Source: Marsupella aquatica
Lineage: Eukaryota; Plantae; Marchantiophyta
Assembly: GCA_973895155.1 (NCBI GenBank)
Contig: OZ316891.1
Span: 19,865,048 to 19,929,047, forward strand
Reading direction: 5' to 3'
Length of the DNA stretch: 64,000 nucleotides
The notes below the pieces were generated by a model, which did not search any database, was not told the DNA's origin, and saw nothing but the letters and a program-made list of their open reading frames with translations. Made by a program: the position numbers and the translations under genes. This document shows positions 2,362 to 48,264 of this stretch, piece after piece; position 1 is the stretch's first letter; each line of letters starts with the position of its first letter.

Positions 2362-3067
2362 TCCTTCCACCAAACTCCACATGTGCCATGTAAGCACCAG
2401 ATGACGATGCTGTCTGGGCTTGACCCAACTTCTTCTATGCATCATCTGACAGCAAAGAGCTTACCACCTCATCGTATGAAATAGACTTCAGGTCTCTATA
2501 CAAGAGAACCTGCTTCAAACCCTAATAAGATGGGGATAAGGAGCTGAGAAGAAGCAAGGCCTTGTCCTCTTCTTCAACGCCCTTACTGAGATTAGACAAA
2601 TCAACAGCTAGGCTGTCAAATTCATCCAAGTGATCTTGGAGCTTGTTCCCCTCTTTGAGCCGAAGGCTCATTAAGAGAGACTTCTTGTACAATCAATCTG
2701 ATGCATCCTCCCGATAGTACTTCTCCCTTAGGGCTTTGAATAGAGATGCACAATCTGCGTAGTCATCCAACTTCTTGATGATATGCGGCTTCAGATAAAG
2801 CATCACCGCATTCACTGCAATTACTTGTTCCTGCCTCCACCTCTTTAGTGGAATCTCCTCCTCATCATCGTACATCTCTCGTGTAGAGAGAAGATGATCT
2901 AGGCCCATAGCGCGAAGAACTCCTTTCACTTGCTTCTCCCAGAGCAAGTAGTCTGTATGCCCATCATACTTTTCCACCTCAAACTTGACACCTCCGAACC
3001 TGGATGTCATCTGTTTTTCTTTCACAATCCCTTCTACTTGCTGCACCGATGATTGTACCGGTGTCAC
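2362..3067 (-). pseudogene. Ty1/copia gag (UBN2/Retrotran_gag_2-like), truncated
   Basis: VKFEVEKYDGHTDYLLWEKQVKGVL followed, past a stop, by LMSLRLKEGNKLQDHLDEFDSL...EEEDKALLLLSSLSPSY. Stops and a frameshift are present. It breaks off at ~2362 into the MTase-like gene. Confidence 0.85.
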
Positions 3068-4134
3068 CTGCGCTTCCTTCTGCTCCTCTCTCTCTCCTCC
3101 TCAAACCGTCGTGGTGATCCTCGTGCTTCAAGATCCACTTCTTCAAAAATCTCCTCCGAATCACTCATGTGAGAATGCAAGAAAAAATGACGTTTTTCCA
3201 ACTTCTTCAAAAAACTCAAAACTTATCACCGCCGCGTAGCCCACAAGCCTAGCTCTCCAATGCTAAAAATCAGAATCGAAACCAAACTCCGACGTAAAAG
3301 TTATTCACTTTTCGGTTGGGGTGGATAAAACTTGGAATTCTCCCTCATTTTGACCACCTCAGGGAATAACAAAAAAGTGAAATAGTACCCGACGTTGGAA
3401 ATGCAATTCAATTTGTGCATCGCGTTGCCAACTCCGATGGCTAGCAACTTGCCCAAGACGAAGGAAAAAAGTTACCTTTCGGCGGATGGAATTTTTGACG
3501 GACGGCCAAAAACATGCTCTCTATTTTTTGGGAATATTCCCGCATAGAGCAGCAGGGCTCACAAGGGCCGTTCCCCCTGTCCAAGCAGTTAAATTGGAGG
3601 GCGGCAAGTCCCGGGATGTGGCTACCAATCAAAAATTGGGAAAAAGAATAAAAAATAGGGGCTAAAGGGGGTTTAAAGCCCCATTATTAAATCGGGAGTA
3701 TAGAAAAAAAGGGGGGGTTGTTTGGACGATCGTGTAGAAGTCGGGGCGTGTACAGGGCCGGGGGGGGGGTGGCAAGGCGGGGGCGCGGGCTGCCGAGAGG
3801 AGCAGCCACGAAACGGCTGCCAGAAGCAGTCGCTGGTGGCGTGAAGGGCCGCAAAGGGAGGGACCAGCGAGAGGGCGAGGGAGGACCGGCGGGCTGATGG
3901 GAGCAACGAAGCCACCGGCCAGCACTTCAGTCACGAGCACGACCGTGGCTACGGCTAGTGTATTCGGGAAGGGGTGGTGGTGGGGTGCGTAAAGGGAGGG
4001 TCGAGAGGGGGATCGGGTGTGTGATGCATAGCCAGGAATCACTCAGCCAGTTAAGTAGGTAAAGCAGGAGTGCACCCTAGAAACACCTTAGTATAGGGAC
4101 AAAACAAGGAAAATATAAACAATTAGGGGCGACT

Positions 4135-4776
4135 ATGGAACCCGGGCCGAGGCCGGAGGTAAGGACGCTGGGGGTGAAAACAAGATTAGGGTTAGGGTGC
4201 GCTAAGCGTCGGCGGCTAGGAAGGATCAATGGGAGGAAGAACCGAAAGAGGAGAGGGGTAAGGAGCGCTTGCAGGGAATGGTGGCTCATTTGCAAGCACG
4301 AACTAGGCAGACGACTACGGGAGGCCAACTACTGTCAGCTGCTTAGGCAAGCACTCAGGGAGAGAGTAGATACCGACGATCGACCTAAGGAGGGTATGAG
4401 CAACGTCAATCAAGCAGCACAATTCTGGGGATGCCTGTTCGAACGGGCAACTGAGTACATCAAGACTTACGAGGACGAAGAATCAGAAAGGGCAGCTCGA
4501 GAACGGCAGGAGCTCGCTCGATTGTGGGAGCTACAGAAGATGGCTTTCTTAGGAGGCGAACTCATCAAGGCCGAGTTCTTGTGGACTCCTACTTCCAATC
4601 AGCTCGACGATCTTCTGTTTTGCAAAGATAGAGTCATCGGCATCCGAGAAGCCATCAAACGCTGCAACAACATACACTGGGAGTTGAAGGGTAGCACGGA
4701 GGGGTGGACAAAGGCAACCGTGCTAGGAGAGATCCACGGGAGCCGAAATGAAGAGGAAGGGAGCCGTCAACGATGA
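4135..4776 (+). CDS. Hypothetical protein (ORF1 of the unclassified insertion; true start uncertain)
   Basis: 213-aa open frame overlapping the start of the next ORF; no recognisable domain. Confidence 0.35.
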   Translation: MEPGPRPEVRTLGVKTRLGLGCAKRRRLGRINGRKNRKRRGVRSACREWWLICKHELGRRLREANYCQLLRQALRERVDTDDRPKEGMSNVNQAAQFWGCLFERATEYIKTYEDEESERAARERQELARLWELQKMAFLGGELIKAEFLWTPTSNQLDDLLFCKDRVIGIREAIKRCNNIHWELKGSTEGWTKATVLGEIHGSRNEEEGSRQR

Positions 4777-7772
4777 AGCTACCCCAGCAAAAAGAACGAG
4801 GTCGGCGGCACCAAAGAAGCCAGCTGAGCAGCAGAGCAGGAGGCAGGGAGAAGCCGAAGAGGAGGACGATCCCATCAATGCCATTCCAACCAAGGATGAC
4901 ACCTGGAAGGGCTGGGCGGCAACCCTACAAGAGGAGGTGCAACTACATTTTGCACGGGAGGAGGATGCATGCTTTACGGCCATGCAGACCAAGAAGTACC
5001 AAGGCTTCATGGCCGGATCCGGCTTAGAGGCCTTTGTAAGATTACCATGGCTGAAGCCGGAGGTGTCGGATTCAGACTTATTAGAATTCGTGGGGTCATG
5101 GGAACCCGAGACCAATTCCATGAGGATATATGGGAAGGATTTCTATCTTACTCCCAAGGTGATTGCCGAAGTGTTTGGCTTGCCGATAGACAATAAGACC
5201 AAAGTTGATACCAGGAAGACCTTGCCTGACAAGGAGTTCCGGTCGTTCCCCGGGCCATCAACGAAGAATAGCTTCTTCCGGAACACCTGCACCAACCCGC
5301 ACATAGGAGAGATGATCGACTTCTTGCGGGTGACCATGCATTGTAACTTGCCGAGGGCAGAGATCGGCAAGGCACGGGTCTATCTGGCAGAGAGGCCAGA
5401 CCCAAGCCGGGACTACAATGGGTACCTCCTCAACCAATTGAAGAAGATCTTAAAGGAGGAGCAGCAGGTAATCGGCATGGGGAGCGTGTCACGACTTGGC
5501 TATCACATGCCGCTGTTGTGCCGGTATGCCAGAGGTCAGACCTTTGCCCCAGTACTTCCCCTACAGGTAAGGACACCTGAGGAAGCTCCAGCATCGAGGC
5601 CGGTAGCAGAGAAGCCTCAACCACCTGTTAGCCCTACGATTGAGCAGGTGTTTAGGCCAAGGAAGGAAGACTTGCCGATGCAGCAACCAAGCATGCAGAA
5701 TCTGCTGAAAATGCTGGAGAAGGAAAAGACGGCACTGGCACCAGCTTCGGCAGCGGCACCAATACAGGACACTGCCCCAGAGGTCAACCTAAGCAGACTT
5801 AGAAGGGAAAACCCCTTTACCGGAAATAAGGAGAGAATTAGGCCAGAATCCAAGCCGGGTGTTCGAATATACGTGGGAGTCTCAAGCTCTGAATCTGAGG
5901 CAGAATTGCCTGAAGCTCCTACCGGCAAAGATGAGAGGGAGAAGCCAGAAGTCCAAGGGTTGGAGGAGGCAGTGGAGGACTGCAACCATGATAACTCCGG
6001 CTATGGGTCGGACCATCACGTTCCAGGAGTAAGGACCTGTGGCCGGTTTATCCCCACACTTCCAAGGGTAGTTTGAGGGGACCCCAACCAGCAGAGTAGC
6101 CCCGAGTCTCCCCCACCAGATGTTGCTCCCCCAAGCTTTGACGGCATAAAGCAAACGACACAGGAATTTCAGGAACGACTTAGGGAAGCAGAAAAGGCAG
6201 CCCTGGCTAGGGAAAAGGATTTGCCAGGAGGAGATTGGCCGGAGGACATCAGGCGGCTAGCCAAAAAAGGAAGCAAACCTCTAGCCACGATTGAAGAGAT
6301 CCGCAAGACGGCTTGGGAGCAGAGGCCGCGATGGGTGATGCCGATCACTTCTACTTACTCCACCTACGCTAAGAATAGAGCCATGGAGTATGGTGAGATA
6401 TGTGGGGAACTTGCGCTCGGCATCTTTGGGGAGGAGTTGGAGGTAGGACCCTTTTTCCATAGGGAGCAGTTGGAGAAGCACCAGTTAGAAGAAGCGGTGG
6501 CTTTAGAGAGAAGCAAGAAGGACGAGGTCATCCGGCGGCTTAGGAGGATGGAAGCCGAGATTGAAGATCTAAGGGCGGCCAAGAAAGCCCAAGATGAACT
6601 GCGGATTAAACGGCATGAGCTGAACATCATGCAGGGGCAGTTGGACACCGCGCAGGCTGATAGTCAGATTATCAAGGATAAACTGACTCAGACCCAGGGA
6701 GAATTGGCCGACGCAATCAAGGACAGGGAGAAATGGAAGAAGGAGCTGAGAGACGCAGAGGAGGCCCATATAGTAGTCAACAACCGGGTCACGACGAAGA
6801 CTCAGAGAAGGGAGAGGGCGCTGAAGGAAGAGCTCGAGGTCGTCCGCAGAGCCCTTGAGCAGAATGGAGGCCAAGTTAGGGAAATCCTATCAAGGGATTA
6901 TTGCGCTACAGCAGGAGCTTGCGTCCCTGTCAGCCAGCTTCAAGGCCGACCTACGGGAGAAGGACGCCCAGCTCGACCAGACTTATGCCAAGATGAATAA
7001 CATGGAGTCTGAGGTCGTAGCGGAGCTCGACAAGGAGCTAAGAGCAACCCAGGAGGAGAGGGCTACCACCAAGAAGGAATTGGAGGAAGCCCACAGGGAA
7101 TTGGAGGAAGCCAAAAACGAGCTGGAGAAGGCACGTAAGGACCTGGATGAGACCCAAGAGGAGTTGGAGGAAATCACGAGGAAGATGGAGAATCTATAGC
7201 GGCGGGCCGACAACCAAACAGAGCGGCTGAAGAAACAAGCCGTAGTATTTAAATGCTTAGCTGCATCAGGTCCATCTCCCGTTGGGGCAAACCAGTTACC
7301 CGGGGTGGTAATTGCCGAAGGACCAGCCGTGACACACGGCCCGGTGCCGGACGTTGGCAGCAAGGGGAAGGAACCGGCTATGGAGATAGTGAAGAAGAAG
7401 AAGCGGAAACCTTCAGGGTCCGGAGGTTATTCGACCCCTCAAGCCGTACTCAAACCGATACCAACCTCCGGCATGAACACGGCAATAGATTCCGCTACCA
7501 CCAAAGGTGGGGATGGCGAGACCCAAGCCGAACTACTCAGTAATGAGGCCGGTATCCCAGATCCACCTCTTGAGCAAGCCGGGGAGGCCGTGGCCGAGGC
7601 TGAGGCCGTAGCCGAGGCTGATGTTGAAGCCGATGCCGTTGCCGGGGGTGGGCCCAGTCAGGCCGAGTTGACTCAGTCAAGGGCAGGTAATCTGTCAGAG
7701 AACGAACCTACGGCAGTGGCTAAGGTGGAAGCGTTGGGGGCGTCCACTGAGGAACAGCCATCGCTGCCATGA
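4748..7772 (+). pseudogene. Plant-transposon accessory protein (Athila/Tat extra-ORF or PMD-like domain) with long coiled coil, ~1000 aa, disrupted
   Basis: GLEAFVRLPW...LLEFVGSW....MRIYGKDFYLTPKVIAEVFGLP resembles the plant transposon accessory-ORF pattern. ORFs 4748-6076, 6221-7000, 6855-7199 and 7305-7772 join through frameshifts and a TAG. The middle part is an E/K/L-rich heptad region. Confidence 0.6.
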
Positions 7773-9600
7773 CGGTGGTGGAGGGCCTCTCCTTTCAAGG
7801 AGGGCGGACGTGGAGGGAGGAGGCGTGAGTGGGCAGGGCGGGCTCAGATCTCTAAGTTTAGGATTAGGATCAGGACCAAGAGGCGGCCCTGACACTTAGC
7901 TTAGTGGGATTGCGGTTCCATTGGTAAGAGCAACACTTGTACTCCTGCCTCGCTGTACATAGGTAGATCCAGTTAGGTAGATTAGGCTTACGCTGCAAAG
8001 AATTAGGTGGATCCACTACCAGGATAAGTACCTGGGCAACGGGGAGCTCAGGGCCTCTTCTTTAGCAAGTTTTTAGTTTGCACCAGCCGGGCTGGGATCA
8101 AGTAGTAAGAGAAGCTCTCGGTTAGTCATATAGTGACCCTTGTGTATATTCATGTTTCCTCATGCCTAAGAGCTGAATAGAGTTGGCCTCATGGCTTAGT
8201 TCGTAGAGCTTGTGTATGAGATGTACTGTTTGTATGGCAAGTGCATGGTATGACTCAGTCAGAAGGAGTCATTTTGCTATTTGTGTGTCGCATTAACTTG
8301 TGTGAAGAGTGCCCACATCAACCAATAGAGGAAGGAAAGTAAGCAGGGGAGTGAGAGTTGGATGTGTCGAGCTGAGAGAGGTCTTAGCGGCTTAACCAAG
8401 CCTATTGGGGATCATTCCGGCGGCGGAATCCAAACATACCTAACAAGACGGAGGGGAAGACAAGGGAAGGCCTAGATTAGGCCGGCTACGTATCTCATGA
8501 CCCGATGAAGGATCTGTCCAGTATATGTGTGTAAAATGTTAATAGTAGTAGTAGAAGGAGGTTAGCAGCGTCCCATGCCGCTAAGCCGCGGAAACGACCT
8601 CGCCAAGCGCAAAACCTGCGGGAATCGGCTTGCGCTGGGGGGGTTTCTTGGGTTTAGGGAGCCATGGGACGCACCACAGGGTGTGTGCACACACCAGCTT
8701 GTAAACCCCCCTAAAATAACCAAAAAATGCCCCTCACAATACAAAGGAAATAACCACGCAATGCCAAGGAGAAGAAAACAGCATGTGGCTAGTAAGGGCC
8801 CTAATGACACTCACTCCTCTCCAAAGCGCGATGGAGGTCTCTAGAGAGAGATATGTTAAAGAGACGACACCCATTCAAGGCCAAGTCAATACTTTACATT
8901 GACAAGTCACATAAAAAGTCACCGCATCATAGGTCAGGGCAGGGAGATAGCAACACATGGATGAGCACATACACCAAGTCCTTCGCAAGTAGATAGATTA
9001 ACATAATAATACAGCCTGACCATTACAAGGGAGAAAACAGGTCCGAGACTTGTTGAGGTCAATATTTACACTGTAGCTATATCCTAGCATGAGTCAGAGA
9101 TCAGTAAACGCATAAGAACAGTATGTTACACTATAGCGTCCCCAGTCATGGGTGGAGCACAATAAAGTATGAAAGGAACCGAGTGAAAAAAGGAAGGGAT
9201 TTAATAAGTACAAGGTCTAACAAAAAGATGCAGGAGTATAGATCAGAGGACTGAAAAGTCATAAAGCAGAAAAGCCTAGTAAGAAGCTGTCAGTACCTAT
9301 ATACATGAGCAGTATGGATAAAGCAACACTTATTGTAGACAAAAAATTAGTGCAAAAAGGACAGGTTTTCAAAGAGGATATTTATAGGATATGGCATGGA
9401 ACGCATAAAAAGTCAGAACACAGTATGGTAAAGTTGGACATGTGCAAGGTAATAGGATTGATAGTACTATTTTATAAAAAACATATATGAACAATTCCGG
9501 TGTCACAACAAAGGTGCCATTAGATGGTGCAGGAAAAAACCCTTAGTATAAAAAGGGAGATATACTAGGCGGTGCTTCATATAAGCTGGTCAGGAAAATT

Positions 9601-9860
9601 GAAGTAGACCATCAACTGAAATTAAAGAGCAGTGGACACAAACTGCAATACATCCCCGAGGTCATCATTCAGCCCCCGTCCCCAGGGTGAATCAAGATTC
9701 TCAAAAAATGATTCTTGTTGTACGTTTCTGCTACCATTGAACCGCGGCGGTAACGAGGAGACGTACATTAATTTCAGGCTAGCACTATAGAGAAGAAAGG
9801 AGTAATAAACCAGGAAAAAGCATGAATCATACCTAGAGAGACTTGAGCCATACCTGTGGT
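9601..9860 (-). ncRNA. Candidate structured RNA, copy 1
   Basis: Minus strand: UGUACGUC-UCCUC-[GUUACC..GGUAGC]-AGAAACGUACA, a hairpin, CCCUGGGG-[ACGGGGGCUGAAUGAUGA]-CCUCGGGG, hairpin GCAGU/ACUGC, then AUGGUCUA. Covaries with copies 2 and 3. Confidence 0.6.
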
Positions 9861-11200
9861 CCTCATGCCATGCTGGTGGAGCCCGTGTGAAAAACAAACA
9901 CAACAATGCTCTGTGCAAAAGTTACTGCAATAGAGGATCTAGAGTACTAAAGTAATGATACATACCAGCAAGCTAAACAGACGAGAGCTGACAGAGAAGG
10001 TGTGAGATTGTGAGAAAATACTAATAGAGAATCTAGAGTACTGGAGCAATGATAGATAATGTCAAGCTAAACCAACGAGAGCTGGCAGAAAAGGTGTGAG
10101 AATGTACTTGAGAAAAAGATCCTGTCAAGAAAAAAGTCAGGAAGCAACTCGCTATCTCCAACGTAAACAGTTGTTAGGAAAGGACCTAGTCAGGAATAGT
10201 CATAGAGCAAGATGCGCCTAGAATGAAAATAATGAACAACTACAGTGCTTTTTAAGGTATGCATGGAAACTAGGGGAGGCAGCTGCGTGACGGGATGAAG
10301 TCGTGAGCGCTGTTAGGGCAACCGCCAGGGTGGTGGTTTACATTAGTAAAACCTAATACATGTAAGAAGTATTATTACGTATTTAGTAAAGTATCTGTAA
10401 TATAAGCCGCGGTATAGGGCAATTTTTAATTTTTTACTAGTTGTATGTAAGATTTTCATCCTTTATAGATAACTTTAATTTTATTCAGTATTGTAGGTCA
10501 AATGCCACCATTTATCCAAAGAGAGAGATATGTTTTATAAAGTAGCAAAAAACACCCAATCAAGGCCACATCAAGAAGTTACTTTGTCCATACATATAGT
10601 ATGTCTAAGTCCTACAGTAAGGTCTGGGAGGAGTCCTGGATAGATAAGCATTACACCTTATAGTCCAAGTCAAAAAACTTCATATATTGCCGGTGACAAA
10701 TGGTAAAGTAAGTTCACAGAAGTACAATGAAAAGTTCTGACGGAGATTATAGGTATCAAAAAAGTTACTACTCATACAGCCCTCAATTCGTTAATAGGAC
10801 AGGTCTCCAAATAGCTTAATCAAAGCATAGTGGCAGGTGCTGCAATTGGAGGTACAGCGTAAAACAAGGGATAGAAATAACTAATGATAGAAGTAATTAA
10901 CAAGTGTCAGAAATAACCAGGATTTGTTTATAAAAAAACTTTTCATAGAGTAATAGGTAGATAGATCTCAACGCCAGGGGTATAGAAAGAAGGATTACTC
11001 TATCAAGTCAACAAAAAACAATTTCTTGGAGATACTAGTGGTGTGGATAGGAGCGAATTGCTGCAGTGTTAGGAACAAAAAAAATTAGTTAGCATGGTCA
11101 ATATATGACATATATGTAGCTTGTTAGAACTGGCATATAGCTCTAAGCAGAGCTCTATGCATGGACCATCGGTGCATCAAATCTGTTAGTCTTACAGACA

Positions 11201-11463
11201 GAAGTAGACCATAAACCATAACTGACATGTAGTTGACTTGACTACATTGCAAGCCCTAGGTCCGTCATTCAGCCCCCGTACCTGGGGTGAATCAAGCCAA
11301 TTAATTGACAAATTCATGCTATATGTTTCTGTTACCAAGATGCCCAGGCGGTAACGGGGAGACATATATCAGTTATGGGCTAGACTAAGCTTTTCATGAA
11401 ATATAAAGAAAGAAACCAATATGAGAAGAGCGGTATTTGTTGAGCGCGCGCCATAGTTGTGGT
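11201..11463 (-). ncRNA. Candidate structured RNA, copy 2
   Basis: Minus strand: UAUAUGUC-UCCCC-[GUUACC..GGUAAC]-AGAAACAUAUA ... CCCCAGGU-[ACGGGGGCUGAAUGACGG]-ACCUAGGG, hairpin AUGUAGU/ACUACAU, then AUGGUCUA. Confidence 0.6.
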
Positions 11464-12414
11464 GGACAGGAAAGGAATCTTACACAAGTGTGCCTTGGAC
11501 TGCTCATAAAGTAACCCTATAGGGAAAAGAAAGAAATGCTAGTGGTAAAGGACGATAGAGCAGTGTGGGGCAGAGTGCTAATGGTGAGAGATGTAAAGGA
11601 CAAAAGCACAGATTGGGGCAGAGTGCCAATGGTAAGAGATAAGAAAACAGAGTGACATTGGGAGGAGATGAACAGCACCTGAGCCAGTCATTCAGCCTGG
11701 GGGATGAAGATGCTCAGAAGAATGCTTACGCAGAGAGGGGAGGTATCATGCAAAAGGAATGTTGAAGAATTGTGCGTCAGAACCAGTGGTGATTGTCTAT
11801 TTTATAAGGATAAAAGTGTTGGTAGGGCATCTTACGTAAGAAGGGAGAGAAGTTGTTTTTTAGGTTTTTAGTATTTAGGCGTACTGTAGCCGTTAGATTT
11901 AGGGTGAATTTAAATAAGTGGTGTAGATGTATAGATCTAAGTGTCTCTTGCGTAAGGTGAGCAATACGTACTTAGATATTATTTTCATGAGTATGCATGG
12001 CTTAGTATTAGTATTTTAATGGGTATATTTTAGAGAGAATCATAGAGTTGCGGTACAAGGTGCTTAACTAAGATAGATTTATATTGAATGGGTCATCTTG
12101 TAAAAAGAGAGAGAGAGAGAGATATTATATAGATATATTACATCCTGCATTAAAGCAGGTCCTATTGTTCTCTATTGGCCATTCCTTGATTCAACATTCA
12201 ATCATATGCAGAGTATGGATCATACATTCACACATATAGTTTTTGGTACTGCGAACGTCTATTAACCATGGAAGTCAGACATGCTTATTCTGTATAACAA
12301 CTCTTATTTATAAATTGTCCATTTTCAAAACAACTAGGTCTATAAAGCTGAGTATCTTTTGATGTTGAGCTCTGCTTGGTGACAGTTGTACTCAAACGCT
12401 GTGTCCACAACATT

Positions 12415-12667
12415 GAGCATGGACCATATTCTTTTACCGGGAATGGACGGATTGTTTCCATTCACAATTCCAATGTCTTCGTTCAGCCCCCGCCATTGGA
12501 TCGAGATTGTGCTTTAATAGGCACAATTTCTAGTCTCATGTTTCTGCAGTGATGTCTAGATGGCTGCGGGGAGACATGGGCCGGAAAAAGTCGAGTCTCC
12601 CAAGCCTTGTTATGTTCCTTTTTATTATTAACTCCAACATCACATTTATGCATACCAATATGTCGTG
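12415..12667 (-). ncRNA. Candidate structured RNA, copy 3 (most diverged)
   Basis: Minus strand: CAUGUC-UCCCC-[GCAG..CUGC]-AGAAACAUG, hairpin AUUGUGC/GCACAAU, UCCAAUG-[GCGGGGGCUGAACGAAGA]-CAUUGGA, hairpin GAAUGGA/UCCAUUC, then AUGGUCCA. Confidence 0.6.
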
Positions 12668-14000
12668 AATGGAATAGAAAAGAAGGAGCAACATCTTCTG
12701 TAAAAAAAATGTGAGCTTAGCACCTGATTTGGTGGGGTTCCCATTGAGTCACGATAGGCTGTGTGTCACTGTGTTGCCTCAGCAGTCCTTGATCCTTGGC
12801 CTGCGCTGCTAGTCCCACGATCTTCTTGCCAGTGCAGTGTGTCCTCTTACTCTGCCATGCATGTCAGCCTATGCTCCCCACAGGGTGTGTGCTTCTTCAC
12901 CTATCGAGTGTTTTCAAAGAAATGTAAGCTCTGTGGCTGGATGGCTGGACTTGGTAGCACCGCTATCTTGGCTTGCTTTTTAGGTCATGGGCTTTGGTAT
13001 CTGGTTGTTTTGTGTGGCCCAGATGTTTTGGGAATAAATCAATGGCTTCGGTGGCCGGATGATTATCTCCTGGTTATTCTGGATTTTAGTTTTAAATTTA
13101 TCCCTGTATCAGGTGACAGGGGGTATATGTCCATAGTGCATATCATGGGACCTACCCACATATGATGAGATCATGATCCTTAGCCATGGGAATCATTAGT
13201 GGCTTATCATATTCTTTTCTTGAGAGAGAGAGAGAGAGTATTTTTCGAACCAAAAATTGGCCCGTAAGAAATCAAAAAATGCTTGTGGAAATCAAACGAA
13301 AAGAGCTTGCACCTTGTAACATTCGGATTATGGTGAGGAATCAGAAACCGATGTCGGTGGGTTGGAAAGATTTGCGCACCCACACCGTTTGCTGGTCAAT
13401 CAGTGGCAAAAAATCAGAACTCCTTCCTCCTGTGGGAAAAATCGTCAATCTTGGACTCAAAACGATCACCTCTTCGTGATCTATCCGTTCAGCCCAAGCA
13501 CTTGACGTCTCTCCCTCCAAGTCAAGCGCAATGACGAGAAACCCCGCTCAGGCAAAAGAGGACTCCATAGCCGGTCAGAAAATCAGAATGCTTCTTTTGC
13601 TCGTTGCGACGCACTCGTTACACACTCGACAACAAATCATCTACCAAAACAATCAGCTTGTCCCGATCTACAAGCAGAGCTACAGCGTGCGACGCCTCCT
13701 TCGCCGTAGAGCTCACACCATCGGGAAAACAAAATCTGGTCCCTCCTCCAAAAAACCGTCGAACACGAATGTTGCCAACTTTTTTCACAAATTCCAGAAT
13801 GACAAAAACTTAGATCTCTCCGCACCACAATCTCCGTTCAACAATTTCTTCGCACCGTTAGAAAGGCCTTGCCCCGATCTATCCGCTGAGCCCATAAACT
13901 CCAAGTTCCATGCGACGGAACTCCGGGAAATCCACCGATACTCAACGCTGGAAAAAACCGTCACAAAATCCCGTCACGAACAATGTCACCTCCCAAGCAT

Positions 14001-14012
14001 GCTCTGATACCA
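14001..14012 (-). other. Primer-binding site complementary to tRNA-iMet
   Basis: Minus strand TGGTATCAGAGC, 2 nt after an LTR end ...TCAACA. Confidence 0.9.
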
Positions 14013-14014
14013 AT

Positions 14015-14330
14015 TGTTGAGCATAGACGACACTCGTAACGGTAAGCACATGACACATCCAACGCGCAAGTAGTCGACACAAGAGATACGTGGTTCACCT
14101 CCTCGAGGCTACGTCCACGGGAACACACAAGAGAGCTTTACTGAACTCTAAGTCCATCGGCCTTACCAAGTCTCTACAGTGTAAGCTCTCCTCATCTCTC
14201 ACGTGGCTCCGTAACAATGAGCCTAAGTTCCACTTATCCAAGCAAATACCGTTTGGCATATAGTGTGCATCCTAGTTAACCTAACCACATCTCCGACTAT
14301 GGTTAGCCTAACTACGGTTATATGTCATAA
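14015..14330 (-). repeat. 5' LTR (partial) of the copia element
   Basis: Ends ...TCAACA next to the PBS. The outer boundary is approximate, where CACTA transposase sequence begins. Confidence 0.65.
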
Positions 14331-16203
14331 CCCTAGACCTTGAGTAAATACCTAACAAACTTGTGGGAAATCTCATTGACCCTATATGTTTGCGAAACTC
14401 AGTCCGCATTAGGAGGATCCATAGATGGCCAAAACCCATGAGGGCCATGCATCCCCATCTCCTCACAACTCTCTCTCCAATTGTTGTCTTTCTCTCCATA
14501 TAGATGGCGAATCAATGACCTCCCAACATTCCCCTCAATGTGCATAGGGTCAAACAAATGGTTAATTGGCATCTCAGCCCAATATGGCAGCTTTGACATT
14601 AATGCAGACAAATGAGTTATGCCACACCGGGCCAACTATAATGGATCATCCGGGTCTATCACTCTATCCCATACATCTTTCCAATAGCGTGGATCCCTTG
14701 GCACTGGTTGAGGGCGTGTATCTGGTTGGCCATCATCTGTGTCATGTAAGAATGGGTCACACCTCTATTCATGCTCTGGGGGGAGATACTTTGTGTGACC
14801 AATGTAAACTATCTTCCATAGGGTGGTAGATTTTTGGCGCGCCACTCCCTCCAAATTGGGCCCTCAAGTTGGGCAAGCTCGGTATCCCGAGACCTGCAAC
14901 CCAAAGATATATCCAAACCCTACAATGTTCACACCCACTACATACATTAAACATTGGCCAGGGGACCAATATATGACAAACCAAGGCATAATCAATATGG
15001 GGTGAGGTATATTATCTAGCAATAACAAGCCATGCATAATTAATATGGGGTGAGGTATATTTCCACATACCCGGAAGATCATGTACATGGTCCACATACA
15101 GATGGCTTTCAATTTAAATTCACGAGGTAAACCACCTGCAAGCACTCGACCATCATAGCAATCCACTCCTCTCTATAGTTGTTGAAGCTCCTCCAACAAT
15201 GGTTGCAAGTAAACATCAATCTTCTTTACTTGCTTGGGGCCTGGGATAATCATTGAGAGTAGCAAATGACCCTTCTTCATGGCCATCCATGGAGGGATGT
15301 TGTAATTTGTAAGGACTACTGGCCAAACTGATCGAGTATGGTTGGGCCTTCCCTGCCAATGCAAAGGGGCTGATCCCATCTGATGCCAAACCTAGACATA
15401 CATGACGTGGATCTGTCTTGAAGTCACCCCATCGGCCCTCCACAAACCTATTTGTAGGTGAGTCCACCATCATACGCATGGTGGGCGGATCTGAAGTCAT
15501 ATCTGACTGGTTCTTGGAATGCCACACCATATACTCAATCAACTCCGCACATCGGTACTGGTGCCATAATCTGGGGATAAGAGGAAAATACCTCATGACC
15601 TTCTGTGCTACTTTTCCAGTGAGCATTCCTCTTGATACCTCGATTGGTCACATGTAGGACATGTAGTGGCATCTTGTGTTCCCCCCTAAAGAGAACACAA
15701 TCATTCACACAAGCATGTATGACTTCGGATTTGAGACCTATGGATTTCAACACCTGTTTTGTTGCTTTCCAGGAACTAGGCAAGCAGTTCCCTTCTGGAA
15801 AAATCCGACTATGCAAAGTCCTGAAAAGATCATCAAGAAGGAGATTGCTTGCTCCATGTCTTTGTTGCAAGTTCAACAATAACATTATTCCTGATAGTCA
15901 AGATAGTTGTGACCCCTCAAAAATCCGTGTTTGTGCATGGTCACGAGCTTCCTCCCATTGTCTAGAGTGGGAACCTCGTGAAGGATTGTCACGATGAGCA
16001 TGTGTTGTGGTGTCAAATTCATCACCCACACCATGCTCACCATCCTCTACATCATAGAACTGGTGCATAAGATCATCCATGGCCCTCTCATTCTCAAGTC
16101 TGTCATCGGTGGCATTAGATACATGCTCAAGAGGGATATCTTCATTTGCTAAAGCTTGAGCCCTATGCCAGTCTTCCATGGCCTCACCAAGGTGTTGCCG
16201 CAT
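14330..16203 (-). pseudogene. CACTA transposase (Transposase_21/TnpD-like), frameshifted
   Basis: IHACVNDCVLFRG, KVMRYFPLIPRL, DPRHVCLGLASDGISPF, SVWPVVLTNYNIPPW...SMIIPGPKQ..IDVYLQPLLEELQQL, SGYRACPT and FDPMHIEGNV are spread across shifting frames. Confidence 0.92.
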
Positions 16204-24521: not shown

Positions 24522-27500
24522 TTACCTATTTGCTGAATCCAAAATTGCTTGAAAAGTGTTAGGGGCAAACTCGAACCCTGGTGATCCCCTCAGTACTTTT
24601 ATCGGCACAAGTCCAAATTTTATGTGAACCACAGATGCCACATCAACATAGCTAATGCTAGATTTCTCGTTACGAACAAAGCAAGTCGGGTGCCTACCGT
24701 ATTGCTGAAACCAAGTGCCTGCCAAAACTACATCCCCCTTACAAAATTCAGCAGCATAGTCATCTGTGAAATCAATTTTAACAATGTGAGCCTTCTTTGT
24801 ACACAACAGAATGTAGAATTATGCTTTCCAAATGCTATTTTCTTCAGCCTTCACAGCAAAATAGTCACCTACTTCAACCAGATCACCAATGTAGCCTTCA
24901 TAGTCACAGGTCTGGCTGTCCAACCCACCGCCCATGTCTTCGATGATGGCTGCAATATCTCCAGGATTTTTGGGGTACACATAATCTACCTCCCATGGCA
25001 GAACATGCGCCTTATTTGCACAATGTTCCAGACTCTCTGGATGAAGTGCACACTTGTTGCAAAAGCAAGCTAGTTCTCTACATTTTAGCATCATGGGATT
25101 CTCAGGACTGTATCCCAAAAAACAATGCTTTTGTCTCACACCTTTGATAGGCAAACATTCAAGGGTTGAGGTCCGCTTCACCTCTTGCACACCAACCTCC
25201 CAGAAAAAATGCCTGACACCCTGCTTCTTGTCATACTCCATTTTCTTTCCCAAGCAAAAATGTTCCCTTAGAAACTCCACCACGTCCTTTTCACCCTCCA
25301 TCGGGTGCCCTCCTTCTTTCCGCAATTGCTCCTTTTGAAGAGCGTGCTTCACTCCACCTCCTAGTCCATCCTGTGCCAACAGGTATATAGCATCAAAGTT
25401 GTCATGTTGAAAGGAAATAAACATTAACATAAAACATAATAGTAAGAGAAGACCAAAAAAGAGTGGGAACTTGAATTATATTTACATGCACATCTTTCCC
25501 GTGCCCTGAGGCATGGAAACACCACAATAGTGGCACCCCATACTCATGGTAATATTTTGACATGTACAAAAAAGGACGGCAAGCTTTAAATTGTGTTGCT
25601 GACACTCGTCTGACCACATAATGTGATTGTTGACAAAGAATCCTTTCTCCCTCATCCACATCCAATGAAAATCCAGGTTGTGCTGCACAAAGAAGGTATC
25701 ATGGCTATTCCCTTGGAATGGTAGCCATAAATAAATCAATTCAGTTCCCCCGTGAAAAGCCCCACGGGGAGGGCGCACAAACAGACCAGGTTTCCCGGGA
25801 GGCAGCCAAGAAAGAACAGAGGGCCAAACCTCAAAAAACCAACCCAAATCCACCTAAGGCAAGGAATTACTCTCCCCGGAGACACCTACCAGCAACCCAA
25901 ACCCACACCACACAAACTCACAACCAGCTTGAGGGCATCAGTGCCCCCAGAACCAAACATCCATTGGTCTCAACGTTCAAACATCACTGCAAAATCAAAG
26001 TCACCCAGCGGAAGTGAAACTGATCCCCCCGCTGCCAAGCCAGCTCCTGCGAAGCCCATCGATACATGATTTAGCGCGCAGCAGGCGAGTGCACTTCTTG
26101 CCCGGGGGGCAACGCCGACCAGCAGCGAATAAGTTTTCCACTGCCTCTGACAGTACAAGTCCCAGGTCAAACACACGTCTCCCCCCCGTCTGAAACATGT
26201 GAGTGTTTCTCCCAATCCAGAGCCTCCAGAGAATCTGGTGCAAGACAAAAAGTTGCGCCACTCGGATCGGCTCCCTCCCACAGGCTGCATCTAAAAGGGC
26301 CATCAGCCCTTGTCCAATTGGCATATCCAGCGCACTCAACGAGGTCAAACAGAGACGCCAGCAACAGACAACATGTGCACATTGGAAAAAAAGGTGAGGG
26401 ATGGTTTCCAGCCGTCCGCTGCACAACTTGCAGTCACCATTGCTCACCTCTAATCTAAGTGCACGGGCCCCAGTGAACAAGCCCCCCACAATGATCCTCC
26501 ATATAAAGGTCTTGCCTCTGGTTGGTAAATCCGATCTCCACAGTCTGGACCAGCTCTCATTCCATCCTCTCTCCTCTCGGGTAAGAGACCAGATCCTATT
26601 CAGGCGTTCGTGATTTGAGGTCTTGGGCCGCAAGAAGTCATACACTCTGCAATTCTGAATTCTGAAATCCTTCAATGGTTCAGGTCTATCTGTCCACCTC
26701 CACTGTTTGGCATACAGGAAGTACTCTGACCGGCAGTGTGAAGCGCTCCATATACTTTCCAAGAACTTCCGTGCAAGCAATTGATGCTCTGCAGAGAATC
26801 CACGCATGTTGCTCCATCTAAGCGGGAGGTCATCTGAAATACAAAAAAGTGATAATCAGCCTCAATAAATTGGGTGATCCTTTGACCATTTTTGTCACAC
26901 ACCATAGGGTTGTCCTCCTCATTGTCATACTGGTGCGGGTAGGTGATCAGAACAAGAATGGTGATTTGTCTATTATCCCAATGAAGGGATTGTACCTCGT
27001 CCTGTGATGCAAACGTGTAATTCTCTGCAAATGTCAATGGAACTGACTATGGTACCTTTCGGAAAGGACTTAAGACAATTTTGGTACTGCTCAGCTTGCC
27101 ATCTAGCATAGAAGTCATGTTTTATAAATGTTTGTATAGAACCTGTCACCTTTTCCATGAACACCACCATTGAGGTGACTTTACTTACTAATCTAAGCCT
27201 CTTTGTAGCCTTAGAAAGTTGTGCATCATCATTCTGGACTTTCTTCTTTCTCACACTATTTGGCTTTGGCAAATCATCTAGGTTAACATACTCATAAGTT
27301 TGCCACACCACAGATTCCGTCTCTTCATCCACTCTTTCCTCCCATGGACACAAATCTAACAGCCCTGGCCCACAGTCCTCACAATCACCTACCAAACAAC
27401 CACTCTTGTGCCAAAGATCACCTTCTCCTTTTGCACATAAGGTCTCTGCACACCACTCTCTCACAGACAATTGTGTATGCTTGTGAGCTTTGCATGGTTC

Positions 27501-35037: not shown

Positions 35038-36631
<1,594 letters not shown>

Positions 36632-42500: not shown

Positions 42501-45500
42501 CAATATCTAGACAAATCAAACGCAAAATATTACAACAACGGTACCTTTGGGGCCTGCCACTTTGTAGTGTCACAAAATATGGTGAACACCGCAAGACTCA
42601 TGATTGTGAAGATCTGTATTCAGAATCCTGAACCTGTGACCTTTCCCAAGGATGACAGAAAAAGTTGACGTACTGTCAAACAATGAATACGTAACCTCAA
42701 TGAGCATTACACGTACCTTTCCTTCTCTGGATCAACAAGTGCAACAGAGTTCTTGGGATCCATGAATCTAAGATAGTACCTGTTGCAAGTATCACAAAGG
42801 CCGGCATCAGATGTCGGAGATATAAATAGGGTCATGGCTCAATTCAAATACGACCTGTCGAGACGCCAAGAAGCCAAGTTGTTTCCTACTGCTGCCTGGA
42901 CTTCATATCTCCGTCCGCATTGAATATCGCAAAAGGCAGAGAACAAGGTCTTGATCATACCAACAAGAACCTGCCCATTGCGGCATTGTATTCGTCTCTC
43001 GTTGAGCTTGTTTCCCTGTTTCTTTGTCAAATGTCTTTACCTGTTTGTGAGCCACCAAAACATCACATACGCAACCAGAGTTGCAATGAATCCCAAACAA
43101 GGAAAGAAGCATTGATCAGACAAGAGTGGGGCAGCTAAGGTTGTGCAGTTAACCTCATTTGTACGAACTTGTGAGGATCGTTATTCAATGAAGTCATCAT
43201 CGTGTATGAATCTAGTGAATGAATATCGCCTATGACATACAAGATAGTAAATGCTCCTTCTGACTTCAGACATTTCCCATAAACTTCAAAGACAATGCAC
43301 GTATCTTGGGTCTCATACGTTCAAACATCTCAAAGTACTTCAACACTGCATAATAAGCCATTGAACGAAGCTTACCCAAGAGGTAGCCTTTGCTAATGGA
43401 GGCTCGCCAGTCCCAGTGGGTGTGAAGTCATCTATTTCTGGAAGTCTTATGGGAAGTTCACTCTCTGACACTGCTTGAGGCGTGCTTGACTCATCAACAA
43501 AAATAATTGGAAATGGTTCTCCCCAGTATCGTTGCCTGGCAAACAGCCAGTCCCTAAGCTTATAATTAACCTGTTTACAAAGAATCCCTTCTATATCAGA
43601 TCAATAATATGGAAACCCAGTCACTCGATAATCCATCACACAGGACCAGCTTAACAAAAAGCTGAATCATATTGCTACATATGTCAATCCACACATTCGT
43701 TATCAGAACCAACACCAAACAGGCTGCTTTTCCTAGAAATTACTAACAAATGCAGAGTAGACACAGTAACAGTACCTGTCTTTTCCCCTGACCAATCAGT
43801 TCAAGCCATTCAGTAATTTTGACAGCGGCTTCGGTGTTAGGTAGACCGTTCAAGTCAACTCCCAGCGAACCATAGGAAGAGTTGATAATAGTGCCACTGC
43901 CTGTGTAGGCACTTTTGCCGTCCAAGGCCCTATCTTCTCCCTGTGCAACGACAAACCTTATTGGAAGGCCGAATGCCGTTGCAAACTCAAAATCTCTTGA
44001 GTCATGGGCAGGGACTGCCATGATGGCTCCTGTGCCATAGCTGCAATTTACAAACAACTTATTTGAGCAAATCGGATACATATACAAGTGTGCAATACAT
44101 ACACAGACGTGCCTCCAGTGAGAACAGTATGTTTGCTTCATAGATAAACACAGTCTACAACTGACCAATTGACTATTAAAGACTGGTCCTTTGACAGGGC
44201 ACTGAAACACAAGATTGTGATGCCAGACGTAAATTAGGTAGCATACCTGCCTAGTACATAATCTGCAACCCAGATGGGTATAGCTTCTCCGGTTGCTGGA
44301 TTTGTTGCTGTTGCTCCAGTAAAGATTCCAGATTTAGTCTTCTGAAGTTCTTTCCTCTCCAGATCACTCTTCCTTTTCGCAGCTTCAACATATTGTTCAA
44401 CCTGCCCCACTTTTCTGTCGTCAAAATATATAGCAAAGAAATTCACTAAAGCAATCTATTCAACTGGTCAACGCATTCAGATTTCAATAACTGCTTTGAA
44501 TCAAAAGGAACCTTATATGCAGATACTTAACGACTCCACCCTGACAAATGCTTCCACGAACTCATTTGATTTCTGGATTGTCCCCACCGTAAAACATAAT
44601 AGAGACTCAGCAGAGTAGTTGCTCCAGGCTGTTTAGTGGTCTAGCTCATACTGAAAGGGAAAAACGTACCACAGCCTGTTGCTCTACTGTAGTTAGCTGA
44701 TCGAGCAAAGGATGCTCGGGAGCAATGACCAAGTATCTGTTCTTATCATCAGAAACACAAAATTGCCAAGTAAGCCCTATGAATAAAAAGTCTTTTGCTG
44801 TGGGCAAACTGGTCATGGCCATGCAAAAACAATCTTCCTGAGGGCTAAATTGCTCATTTGCTAAAATCTGTTGTGGAAAAGGAAAACAGCTCCACTTTGA
44901 CAATAACAGATAACGGTCTAGTCAAACAGTGAAAGACTGAGGTTATGAGCTTACGTGGCACCACAAATAGTGTCTGGTCTTGTTGTGAAAACAGTCAAAC
45001 CGATTGAGCTCTCATAACCACCAGCACCCACAATATTGAAATTAATTTCAGCGCCTTCAGACCTACCAATCCAGTTTCGCTGCATGTCCTTGACGCTCTC
45101 TGGCCAATCAAGCGTGTCCAGGTCCTCCAGAAGCCGGTCAGCATATGCAGTTATCTTTAGCATCCACTGTTTCATTGGCTGTCACACTAAGAAACGGAAT
45201 CAATGGTCCAGCAAAGCGCAAGATGTGCTCTTTCTTCAAACGCTACCATCAAAAGAGAAACTCGAAAAAATTCCTCTACATACACGTGGATTTCAGTGTC
45301 GAAGCATGGACGAGGATGCACCAACTGTAAGCCTCCTCTTCTGGGTATATTTAGATTGAACCAAACGAGGATGTAGTAGATGATTACCTTTCGTAGCACT
45401 GGATAGCCGCCACGTTCACTTAGCCCATCAATTACTTCCTCATTTGCCAACACAGTTCCAAGAGCTGGGCACCAATTCACAGGAACCTCGGCCTGCTCAT

Positions 45501-47125
45501 TAAATACGATAGTTATAGGTCAATCCATTACATCAGCATTCAAATTGCCAGTGAATATTCTCCTAGTACAATCTCACTTGTACTCTTCGAAAGAATTATC
45601 ACAGATAAGTATTCAGAAACCTGATATGCAAGGCCCTTGTTGAATAGTTGTAGAAATATCCATTGTGTCCATCTGTAGTAGTCAGGCTCCGTCGTTGAGA
45701 TCTCTCGTTGCCAATCATACGAAAATCCTAACGCTTTAAGCTGTGAGATCAAATCAATGGAAGGTAACCATTATTTATAGAGTGAAAAATATGAAACATA
45801 TGGAAATAGGGAATGGATAGTGCGTAACGACAGAAAGAATCCCAGCCCTCGCATGTGTTTCTGAATTTTCAAATTTGTTGCTTTCATCTTAGGGGCCTAC
45901 CTGGCTCCTGAACCGGTCGATATTCTTCAGTGTTGTCTCCCTCGGATGAGTCCCTGTCTGGAAAGGAGGGACAGTCCGGCATTATGTTTTACTCAATTCA
46001 AATAGACCTCAGGACAACGAGCCGTCAGAACCTTAAGGTGCCAAGCACGCTGAAGATGGATAGAAGGCTCCTTTGTTTCTATAGTTTCAAGATCATTTAG
46101 ACACACAATTTTTTTAGTAGTTATTCGAACGTGACTCCCATTAATACTGTAAGTCCATTCGTGGTTCTGAACAACCTGAATGGCATATTGCTCGGCTGGC
46201 AATCCGAAAGCATCCCAGCCCATTGGATGCAAAACGTTGTAGCCTCTCATCCTCTTGTACCTCGCTATAATGTCGGTAGCTGTGTATCCCTCTGGATGCC
46301 CTACGTGCAGCCCTGCACCACTATCACCCAACAGCATTTCCGTCAAAAAATCAGCACTGCTCTGGTAATCAATAGCTCACTTCTGAACGCCACCGCGTTG
46401 ACATTCACATTCCTAGATTGGAGAGAATATATTGTGAGGCATAATCGTCACAAATTTCGAAATCCCTATGTGCCATTGAGACTCTCCAGTTGTCCAGGGA
46501 AATGCAGTACTGGGAGCAACCAACCTGGGATATGGAAACATGTCCAACACGTAGAACTTGGGCTTGGAGGTGTCTACAGATTCCGGAGTACAAAAGGTCT
46601 GCTGCTCTTCCCATATGCGTTGCCATTTAGCCTCAACTTCCGGGAATGGATACTGTAAAAGCTTCCCTAATTCTGTATCCTGACCCAATCCGTCCCCCTG
46701 TAAACAAGAGGCCCGGAGGTTTCAGAGCAATGCACTACAATTCCAGCAGTGAACCGCATGGAGATGGCAGAACCCTGATCAACACAAACTCTCACCTTCA
46801 ACAAGTCGCTCTCCTGCTGCTCGAGCTGTGCTGGAGGGGTGTTGATGGCCGCATTGCAAAGGACTTCACACCGACTTGTGAATCCTGCTGCTGCTCTCCA
46901 AAACGGAATTTGTGAGCTGCTGCTCCTGCTGCTCCGGTCATGCTGAATGACTATCCCCGATCTCAGCCTGCAGCCCAGAACACTTTCCACCCTACTACTA
47001 CAAAGACGTCTGCTGCACACCGAAATTGGAATTGCCCTCCCTGCAAAGTTGAGCGCCAGGTTTTGCCCCATTACTGCCAGCCCTGCGAAACCCGCTATTC
47101 TCGATAATCCTCCATCTCCTGGCAT
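39501..47125 (-). CDS. LARS2: Leucine--tRNA ligase, organellar (bacterial-type), multi-exon
   Basis: [21 protein letters not shown] (HIGH), [47 protein letters not shown]. Exon 1 (47125-46796) splices in frame to 46697. Stop TGA at 39503-39501. Confidence 0.96.
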
Positions 47126-48264
47126 AGTGCTCCTCCCTCTCTCTCACTCTCTCCCCCCCTTCGTCGGCCTTCTCCCGCACCTACTCGTGCACTGTCATCC
47201 GCTTGGAGATCCACAATTGCACAGATTGGCAATGGCGACGGCATCCGCGTTCTCATGTGTATATTGTCTCCGACTTCAGCATATTTCGTATGATCCCGAA
47301 GCTCGTGTATTTTTGGATGTGTTTTTGAGCATGAGTAAAGCAAAATATTCAATTGGAGTGTATCGAAAATCGCGCGTACCGTCTCAGAATTCACTACACC
47401 AAATAAATCATCGTTAAGACCTCCCCAACGCGTTTGCAGTCTTGGGACCTGGAGCTGTAGCACGTCGGTTCTCAAGACTCCATTGATCCATCGAACGAGA
47501 GTCTGCTCACAAGCTATGCTGGGTACCGGGGTGGTCTCCAGAAAAGCTTAGCATTGGGGTGGGCGGGGTTTGTGGGCTAGCTCAGTTCGCGGGCCACACA
47601 CCAGAAACCAGAATCTGTGCTTGCTCCATATCCAACATCCATATTTGTTCGCTCGAATACCAAGGATCCTGTTCTGGGCGATTGGACGGGGCTCTTTGTA
47701 TCCACGTTTCTCTATCCACATTTGCCTCTCACTTTTTTTGACGGCAGCTTGTATTTAAACCACACCTGCCCACATTAAAGGGCCCCTCACACCTGCCCAT
47801 TTAATAAGAGGGCCCATTCGCTGGTGTTACCGTTTCCCCCTACACAAAGCCTTGGCCTTGTATTGACTTGGCCTTGTATTTGAACAGTGGACCATGGAGA
47901 GCTCTATTCAAATAGTGCGCCGGGTGCATTATATTGGTGTTCTGACTATGTGTTTTCATGTTTTGTTATATTTGTGTTTTGACTATGTGTTTTCATGTCT
48001 TGACCTTGTATTTGAACAATGGACCATGGAGTGCTCTATTCAAATAGTGTGCCCTGATATTATATTAGTGTGTATTCATGTTTTCATGTTTTGTGATATT
48101 AGTGTTTTGACTGTGTTTTCATGTTTTGTATTTATAGAAAGCTGTGTTCGAATATTGACGTTATGTTTGAATATTGACATTGTCATATATGATTATTGAA
48201 TTTTTTATTATTTGTGCTCAATGTAGAATAGTTTAGGGTCAAATCTCAAACAACTTGAATACAA

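Follow-up and report, generated by a model that had tools for sequence, protein, structure and literature searches.

GA-bounded non-coding modules with a predicted permuted hammerhead-like fold in the Copia leader of a liverwort

What are the three non-coding modules that lie in a row between GA repeats in this liverwort genome, and how might they have come to stand there? In the window analysed (the whole 64-kb stretch of Marsupella aquatica DNA), module 1 (8852..10519, 1668 bp, with its 3' end at 8852), module 2 (10529..12105, 1577 bp) and module 3 (12123..13221, 1099 bp) are all read on the minus strand. They are bounded by GA tracts at 8843-8851 and 13222-13238, the former part of a host microsatellite, and are separated by tracts at 10520-10528 (module 1/2 junction) and 12106-12122 (module 2/3 junction). 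Only nine GA/TC tracts of at least 8 nt occur in the window, and none of the other five has a module; the post-hoc Poisson probability of the clustering is 2e-5 for the same strand and 6e-4 for either strand. The initial annotation had described modules of 1.1-1.7 kb bounded by GA and starting with AGAGAGAGATA. The lengths and all three starts were borne out, and these three starts are the only occurrences of AGAGAGAGATA in the window (shuffle mean, 0.02). Three modules would share one orientation by chance alone in one case out of four. The same annotation saw no credible open reading frame, in agreement with our finding that none of the ten stop-to-stop frames of at least 62 aa (the longest 135 aa) matches Pfam at E<=0.05.

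Homology between modules 1 and 2 had been proposed to run up to the GA tract. This holds, their GA-proximal ends being 65% identical over 141 columns (z 4.9; 0 of 200 shuffles). The 3' half of module 3 is unrelated to those of the other two (z 0.8 and -0.3), and the 5' halves of the three modules cannot be aligned with one another (z -0.3 to 0.5). Module 3 thus belongs to a different family and has in common with modules 1 and 2 the ribozyme motif described below and the last few bases of its 3' end (GAGATAT as the start on the plus strand), and nothing else. No poly(A) tail was found at the module ends, self-BLAST revealed neither terminal repeats in the modules nor a pseudo-LTR (a partial tandem of one unit) at the locus, and folding and hairpins at the 3' ends were no better than in shuffles (z 0.5-1.5). 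The TATA-like words noted earlier are present on the minus strand at 11806 and 10255 but are commonplace: modules 1 to 3 hold 4, 3 and 2 on the minus strand and 2, 1 and 1 on the plus strand. Because they are frequent on both strands and none lies upstream of the module 3 motif, they provide no evidence for a promoter. Rfam returned two matches at E about 9, both attributable to chance.

Each module carries on its minus strand a hammerhead-like motif with an altered core, whose conserved blocks stand in the rare, non-circular order S, G, C. The three copies lie at 9641..9767, 11248..11368 and 12463..12580, with predicted cuts after the C at 9760, 11361 and 12573, respectively. The expectation of one structured motif per module was therefore confirmed, with three in the window, all on the minus strand, against none in 100 shuffles; a covariance model found no fourth copy in the window. 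The identity of the motif as a permuted hammerhead had not been recognised in the first reading. The ribozyme sits in the middle of each module, 649-760 nt from the 5' tract and 450-908 nt from the 3' tract, and the predicted sites are 1212 and 1601 nt apart, cut to cut. A pattern scan of viral contigs gave no matches, and a scan of metagenomes gave 12. Two of these (L002 and L004) were retained, and the other ten, with no covariance-model match at E<=5, were set aside as chance. The two retained copies lie in flanks unrelated to the modules and to each other (largest z 2.1), and neither shows a GA tract in its 1.2-1.3 kb. Of the 14 frames listed for them, 13 were checked and none matched Pfam.

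The order S, G, C is kept in all five sequences (three modules and two metagenome copies), as are the core segments CUGAAYGA and CAGAAAC, whereas the exact cores CUGAnGA and CGAAA are absent. Compared with validated SGC ribozymes, the motif has an extra A within CUGAnGA and another before GAAA. Stem II is reduced to one G-C pair in four of the five; a hairpin of 20-25 nt takes the linker's place, and the spacer measures 45-49 nt (about 45 nt from GAAAC to block C). A four-way junction, the first two pairs of which can swap partners, stands instead of stem II. Across the five sequences the fold comprises 26 pairs, with 94.6% of 130 cells paired and 16 pairs changed on both sides (controls: 0 of 500 shuffles; 38-45% for slid alignments). 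Double changes affect five of seven pairs in stem III, one of seven in stem I and all eight in the stem joining I and II. Stem I shows G-U rather than A-C, a one-strand bias that identifies the minus strand as the motif strand. Nested minimum-free-energy folding misses this knotted fold (z -0.7, 0.0 and -1.9). HDV-like ribozymes are diagnosed by P3 and P2 and the hairpin ribozyme by loop B; by eye, neither P3 or P2 pairing nor loop B is present, and both readings of the motif were dropped. On this model, self-cleavage of the RNA is predicted.

The stack is an insertion in the GA microsatellite of the 5' leader of a Copia retrotransposon, as seen from the anatomy of the locus and from an uninterrupted copy. 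This host lies on the minus strand, with a 514-bp LTR (14015..14528, TGTTG..CAACA ends, high contig depth), a motif at 14001..14012 that we take to be a primer-binding site of the initiator-Met tRNA type and that occurs once in the window, leader sequence beside it (13239..14000) and again at 8679..8842, and a Copia-type gag start (2696..3010), for which both homologues found carry PF14223. Between the second leader segment and gag lies element X (4020..8678, plus strand), a very high-copy element with TG..CA ends, a 5-bp duplication (GGGTG), broken coiled-coil ORFs and contig joints at 8678/8679. Its main ORF belongs to no Pfam family; 13 unnamed homologues were found, none longer, and none of the eight that were scanned matches Pfam.

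Copies of the modules were assessed by aligning contigs from four public sequencing runs, including two designated X1 and X2. The modules are low-copy repeats rather than single-copy sequence, with several copies plus short variants, and their depths are all of one order. The host leader is far more abundant by contig depth, which is not copy number (bins at 7210 and 22129 in X1, against 282-1510 for the modules). An uninterrupted host site, akin to the empty sites for which a search had been suggested, was observed in X1 and X2, where 8851 is joined to 13236 across a longer GA tract and nine other letters, at roughly single-contig depth (85.6 and 14.1, respectively). Both runs belong to a single study, and the site probably represents a paralogue rather than the allele; among the rows listed, three further X2 contigs go from tract 1 into sequence like the right flank. 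Other X2 contigs begin or end at the tracts (8849-9176, 10023-10528), and four of those listed pass tract 2 into other sequence resembling a module start; the loose ends at this tract look like diverged ends of modules 1 and 2. The short variants retain both module ends and the ribozyme, and depth peaks over the motifs. Among the joints listed, those of module 1 are 8893-9651 (three of four runs) and 9760-10497 (all four), and those of module 3 are 12236-12476 (two of four) and 12793-13176 (three of four). Motif 3 has the highest contig depth within the stack and is found in 13-27 contigs per run with differing flanks. No contig with the modules in another order was seen among 15 of the 28 joints and 12 of 13 further rows, and no reverse transcriptase, endonuclease or longer relative was found, the public contigs having been used in place of the assembly.

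Together, these observations suggest, with a probability that we put at roughly 0.6, that the modules are non-autonomous retroelements inserted in the GA microsatellite of the Copia leader, each with a predicted self-cutting permuted hammerhead-like fold. Since another copy of the host transposon has an unbroken GA repeat, they are likely to be small parasitic elements that target GA repeats and accumulate there. The proposal that non-autonomous elements build an array in (GA)n gains from the uninterrupted site, the multiple copies and the contigs that break or diverge at the tracts, whereas the different orders that it envisaged did not appear among the joints and rows listed. In such a scheme the minus strand would be transcribed, for which read-through from the host LTR would suffice here; through its (CU)n stretch this RNA would anneal to a (GA)n strand bearing a nick, from which reverse transcription would be primed. 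The enzyme, borrowed in trans, would most probably be a Penelope-like reverse transcriptase. A new copy would again end in GA, each insertion leaving fresh tracts that later ones could enter, all oriented alike. With the ribozyme in a central position, RNA cut from site to site would contain the CU tract; pieces of this kind might be released from the array RNA, form circles like those of retrozymes and be opened by priming at the CU tract, which would yield exactly GA-module-GA with the ribozyme in the middle. As these monomers would join halves of neighbouring modules, arrays could combine the 5' halves of one family with the 3' halves of another. The full version, in which plants harbour microsatellite-homing circular-RNA retroelements with an active knotted hammerhead of non-standard core, circles reverse-transcribed from (GA)n and shuffled halves, is offered tentatively, as a possibility that we rather doubt.

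The 4.37-kb stack could instead have arrived in a single insertion, as a 5'-truncated and non-coding tail, rich in ribozymes, of a long Penelope- or Terminon-like element. Retrotransposition would likewise be GA-primed, but the inner GA tracts would be relics of older accretion and the modules no longer independent. Terminons make head-to-tail chains with several hammerheads (PMC6431247), the module depths are of one order, and the resemblance of the loose ends at tract 2 to diverged module 1 5' and module 2 3' ends implies that the adjacency of these modules may be conserved. Against this, short variants preserve the ends and ribozyme of each module separately, module 3 is unrelated to the others beyond the motif, and its motif recurs between varied flanks; we judge a single insertion unlikely. 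We hold it even less probable that a microsatellite-specific LINE (of the Tx1/L1 clade like Kibi, or with a restriction-like endonuclease) mobilises the modules as SINE-like passengers, with linear RNA and another role for the ribozyme. Kibi elements do target TC microsatellites (PMC3812793), the 3' ends of modules 1 and 2 are conserved, and the window has an L1-type zf-RVT fragment at 26004-26855. However, no LINE with the module 3' end was found, poly(A) is lacking, and a central ribozyme would remove the 5' part, yet that part is inserted.

A DNA-level origin, through a Replitron/HUH or other element or through recombination between GA tracts, with the motif incidental, is very improbable. 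Liverwort Replitrons exist and combine short terminal direct repeats with orientation-specific insertion (PMC10288648), but the boundary repeat is already present in the host site, the modules hold no Rep ORF, the 3'-end hairpins do not exceed shuffles, and the best-conserved part is an RNA fold with a one-strand G-U bias; the Replitron suggestion of the initial annotation is left without support. Its alternative, in which RNA cassettes gathered at one end of a carrier spanning 3306-8843, is not supported: this segment is a composite of Copia leader and the separate nested insertion at 4020-8678, and its contig depth exceeds that of the modules by two to three orders of magnitude (contig depth not being copy number). 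Element X is excluded as the carrier by its separate insertion and far greater depth. Although the modules lie within the leader in this window, the notion that they form a fixed part of it or of 3306-8843 is contradicted by the uninterrupted leader copy, the depth gap and the composite segment, and we give it almost no credence.

A genomic SGC form in which the core is changed and a four-way junction replaces stem II would widen hammerhead sequence space and give SGC-type ribozymes a role in plant retroelements. It would also offer non-coding elements a way to amass in microsatellites while regenerating their target, and perhaps to travel within an LTR element. Our literature search, which covered sources other than subscription journals and Repbase-type reports, found no prior paper describing such elements. 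What is new is the host context, with the stack lodged in a GA tract that belongs to a Copia 5' leader.

Among known systems, Kibi Tx1-clade LINEs resemble the modules in their TC/GA microsatellite target but are autonomous APE-RT elements of fish (PMC3812793), and the modules have no coding part. Unlike in Replitrons, there is no Rep ORF, and the short repeat belongs to the target rather than to the element; a non-autonomous Replitron is conceivable. For Chlamys Penelope-like elements (PLEs), a bias towards microsatellites and head-to-tail arrangement of non-autonomous copies have been described (Craig et al. 2021, PMC8557442). The non-autonomous ones share with the modules the green lineage, insertion in microsatellites, head-to-tail arrangement and 3'-end conservation; their reported targets are (CA)n and (C)n, and most are without canonical hammerheads (PMC8557442), and the present locus has neither a pseudo-LTR nor an autonomous partner that we could find. 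Terminons pair reverse-complement repeats with their target (PMC6431247). Like these and other EN-minus PLEs, the modules have an RNA whose 3' end is the reverse complement of the repeat targeted, and form chains of co-oriented units with hammerheads, but in Terminons the hammerhead abuts the repeat and the target is telomeric, whereas here it lies 450-908 nt away, the microsatellite is internal and there are no ORFs.

Retrozymes (PMC7761336; bioRxiv 10.64898/2026.07.22.740005), which in animals are proposed to derive from PLEs, are likewise non-coding tandem units with one hammerhead each and a presumed borrowed reverse transcriptase. Non-LTR retrozymes consist of similar repeats of 150-300 bp with type I hammerheads, in contrast to units of 1.1-1.7 kb that are mostly unalignable and of SGC order. 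LTR retrozymes have type III hammerheads in their LTRs, their own primer-binding site and a 4-bp duplication; the modules lack these, the primer-binding word here being that of the host, and are bounded by (GA)n. The validated type-SGC hammerheads themselves (HRIMA-1 and variants; Eckert et al. 2023) have been reported from metatranscriptomes alone, with no host genome known (PMC10085705). Their descriptor asks for 2-6 further pairs in stem II, a linker of at most 8 nt and a spacer of at most 15 nt (PMC10085705), and the motif departs from it on all three. It differs also in its core (CUGAAYGA, CAGAAA), its single-pair stem II and its place in a eukaryotic genome, but has in common with type SGC the order site, GAAA, CUGA..GA, stems I and III, a further stem that links stems I and II at their far ends, and a spare base between the last A of the core and the G of stem II.

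Three non-coding modules on the minus strand (8852..10519, 10529..12105 and 12123..13221; 1668, 1577 and 1099 bp) are delimited, as the initial annotation had described, by four GA tracts at 8843-8851, 10520-10528, 12106-12122 and 13222-13238, which represent four of the nine GA/TC tracts of 8 nt or more in 64 kb. The common start word is likewise borne out, since AGAGAGAGATA occurs three times in the window, once at each module start (shuffle mean 0.02), and in agreement with the reported lack of a credible ORF, a Pfam search of the 10 module frames of 62 aa or more gave no match. Modules 1 and 2 align over their GA-proximal 115 nt (z 4.9), the end at which homology had been claimed, and again at an internal motif; module 3 aligns with either of them at this motif only, and the 5' halves show no alignment between any of the three. 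Two-copy tandem repeats were observed in the 5' halves of module 1 (94 bp, 9929-10116) and module 2 (48 bp, 11545-11640). The TATA-like words noted in modules 1 and 2 are present, although such words are common and none lies upstream in module 3, and they do not amount to evidence of a promoter.

The motif, found on the minus strand of every module, consists of GUC, then UCCYCG, then CAGAAAC, then CGGGGG-CUGAAYGA. Three matches to this three-block pattern were found in the window versus none in 100 shuffles, and an Rfam search returned no family for it. Module 2 has a further minus-strand occurrence of CUGAAUGA, at 11688-11706, where the other blocks are missing and the covariance model gives no match. 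A metagenome pattern scan yielded 12 matches, of which two contigs (L002 and L004) contained full motifs, with flanks unrelated to the modules and no GA tract within their short lengths. Both carry the same putative ribozyme variant (L002 742-835, L004 582-680), with a higher CpG content than the modules. Across these two sequences and the three modules, 26 proposed pairs were 94.6% paired, with both sides changed in 16, a pairing level reached in none of 500 shuffles (slid controls, 38-45%); because the structure was derived from the same five sequences, this score is biased in its favor. Stem I has up to seven pairs and one compensatory change; the two pairs at its end are in competition with the hairpin that follows, giving a four-way junction of stems I and II and two flanking helices.

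The stack occupies the leader of a minus-strand Copia element, whose 514-bp LTR (TGTTG..CAACA, 14015-14528) and primer-binding site (14001-14012, also minus strand) lie to the right and whose gag start, at 3010, lies to the left; PF14223, the Copia gag domain, is present in both homologues found for this gag. At 3251-3264, about 240 bp ahead of the gag start, a degenerate word looks like another primer-binding site, perhaps by chance. Between the gag start and the primer-binding site are two insertions, the stack and a separate element X (4020-8678), without which the leader measures about 1.9 kb. The segment 3306-8843, proposed previously as a single carrier, is therefore a composite of Copia leader and element X. 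The latter has TG..CA ends and a 5-bp duplication, GGGTG, the sole such candidate within 3000-4400, contig joints at 8678/8679, and a very high copy number (depths summing to 1e5-1e6 in run X1) with no two matching LTRs. Its broken plus-strand ORFs encode coiled coils and have 13 unnamed homologues, with no Pfam family among the eight scanned; it is possibly a giant solo LTR or a non-autonomous LTR element. One contig joint in this element leads from 8678 back to 7839.

Elsewhere, the window contains a P5 ATPase host gene (50536-51669), one exon of which (50839-51666) matches a Calypogeia fissa protein with 90% identity across 97% of the query and a Marchantia protein with 71% identity; the best E-value went to a coconut protein (79% over 71%). 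The Calypogeia and Marchantia identities make a leafy liverwort the most likely source of the window. Judging from their translations, we take 35038-36631 and 43743-47143 to be host genes for elongation factor 1-alpha and a leucyl-tRNA-synthetase-like protein. Transposon remnants include a broken CACTA-type transposase fragment (15219-15997, minus strand; weak Transposase_21 match) and a C-terminal L1-type RT fragment (zf-RVT, 26004-26855); a frame at 26-526 matching N6/N4 DNA methylase (PF01555, E 2e-7) is perhaps a transposon-borne 4mC-type methyltransferase fragment.

Evidence for mobility comes from contigs of four public runs from two studies, in which about half of the region's words are present. 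In one contig each from X1 and X2, runs of one study, tract 1 and the right flank are joined, and what lies between them is a longer GA tract plus nine other letters; three further X2 contigs pass from tract 1 into right-flank-like sequence. The window does not contain these nine letters, which speaks against a simple deletion at this locus; we take the joint to represent an unoccupied leader copy. Depth is several- to tens-fold higher in leader bins than in module bins; within modules, near-identical contigs reach about 1.5-4 times the depth of the most diverged contigs, and relatives at 80-90% identity are numerous, so that the modules appear to be low-copy repeats, depth being a rough guide only. 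There are contig starts at 8849 and contig stops at 10528; beyond tract 2, four X2 contigs run on into different sequence of module-start-like character, and in four X3 and three X4 contigs module 2 is preceded by a tract and a different end. The loose ends at tract 2 look like diverged versions of the module 1 and 2 ends, which counts against module independence. Joints at 8893-9651, 9760-10497, 12236-12476 and 12793-13176 indicate candidate shorter relatives retaining the ends and ribozyme motif; position 9760 coincides with a predicted cut position, to which we give no weight. The proposal of non-autonomous (GA)n insertions gains from the unoccupied leader and from the repeated occurrence of the modules. 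Also against independence, the joints listed from the four runs include none with the modules in a different order.

Together, these observations suggest that the initial observation is real and the modules mobile and unusual, and that the stack is best explained by non-autonomous retroelements that carry a putative ribozyme (probability roughly 0.6). A minus-strand module RNA would have a (CU)n end able to pair with the (GA)n strand; target-primed reverse transcription would then set out from the conserved end and proceed to the right. The new copy would end in GA again, regenerating the target and fixing orientation. Precedents are Chlamys PLEs, with microsatellite bias and non-autonomous head-to-tail copies (PMC8557442), Terminons, in which a reverse-complement repeat pairs with the target (PMC6431247), and TC-specific Kibi LINEs (PMC3812793). 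The ribozyme motif is placed centrally, which would be awkward with a linear template and natural with a retrozyme-like circle (PMC7761336; bioRxiv 10.64898/2026.07.22.740005); cut-to-cut monomers would be 1212 and 1601 nt, each with one CU tract. No partner enzyme for the modules emerged from this analysis. The data give no support to a Replitron identity (PMC10288648).

The motif resembles the SGC hammerhead. In each module, the three blocks run site, GAAA, CUGA..GA, the order termed SGC by Eckert et al. (PMC10085705), and the motif is predicted to be hammerhead-like in its working. It departs from the validated SGC ribozymes in three ways: the core has 8 nt (CUGAAYGA), C11.1 and G12 are separated by an A, and stem II consists of a single G-C pair in four of five sequences. 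It does not satisfy the SGC descriptor published by those authors, which would explain why it was previously missed.
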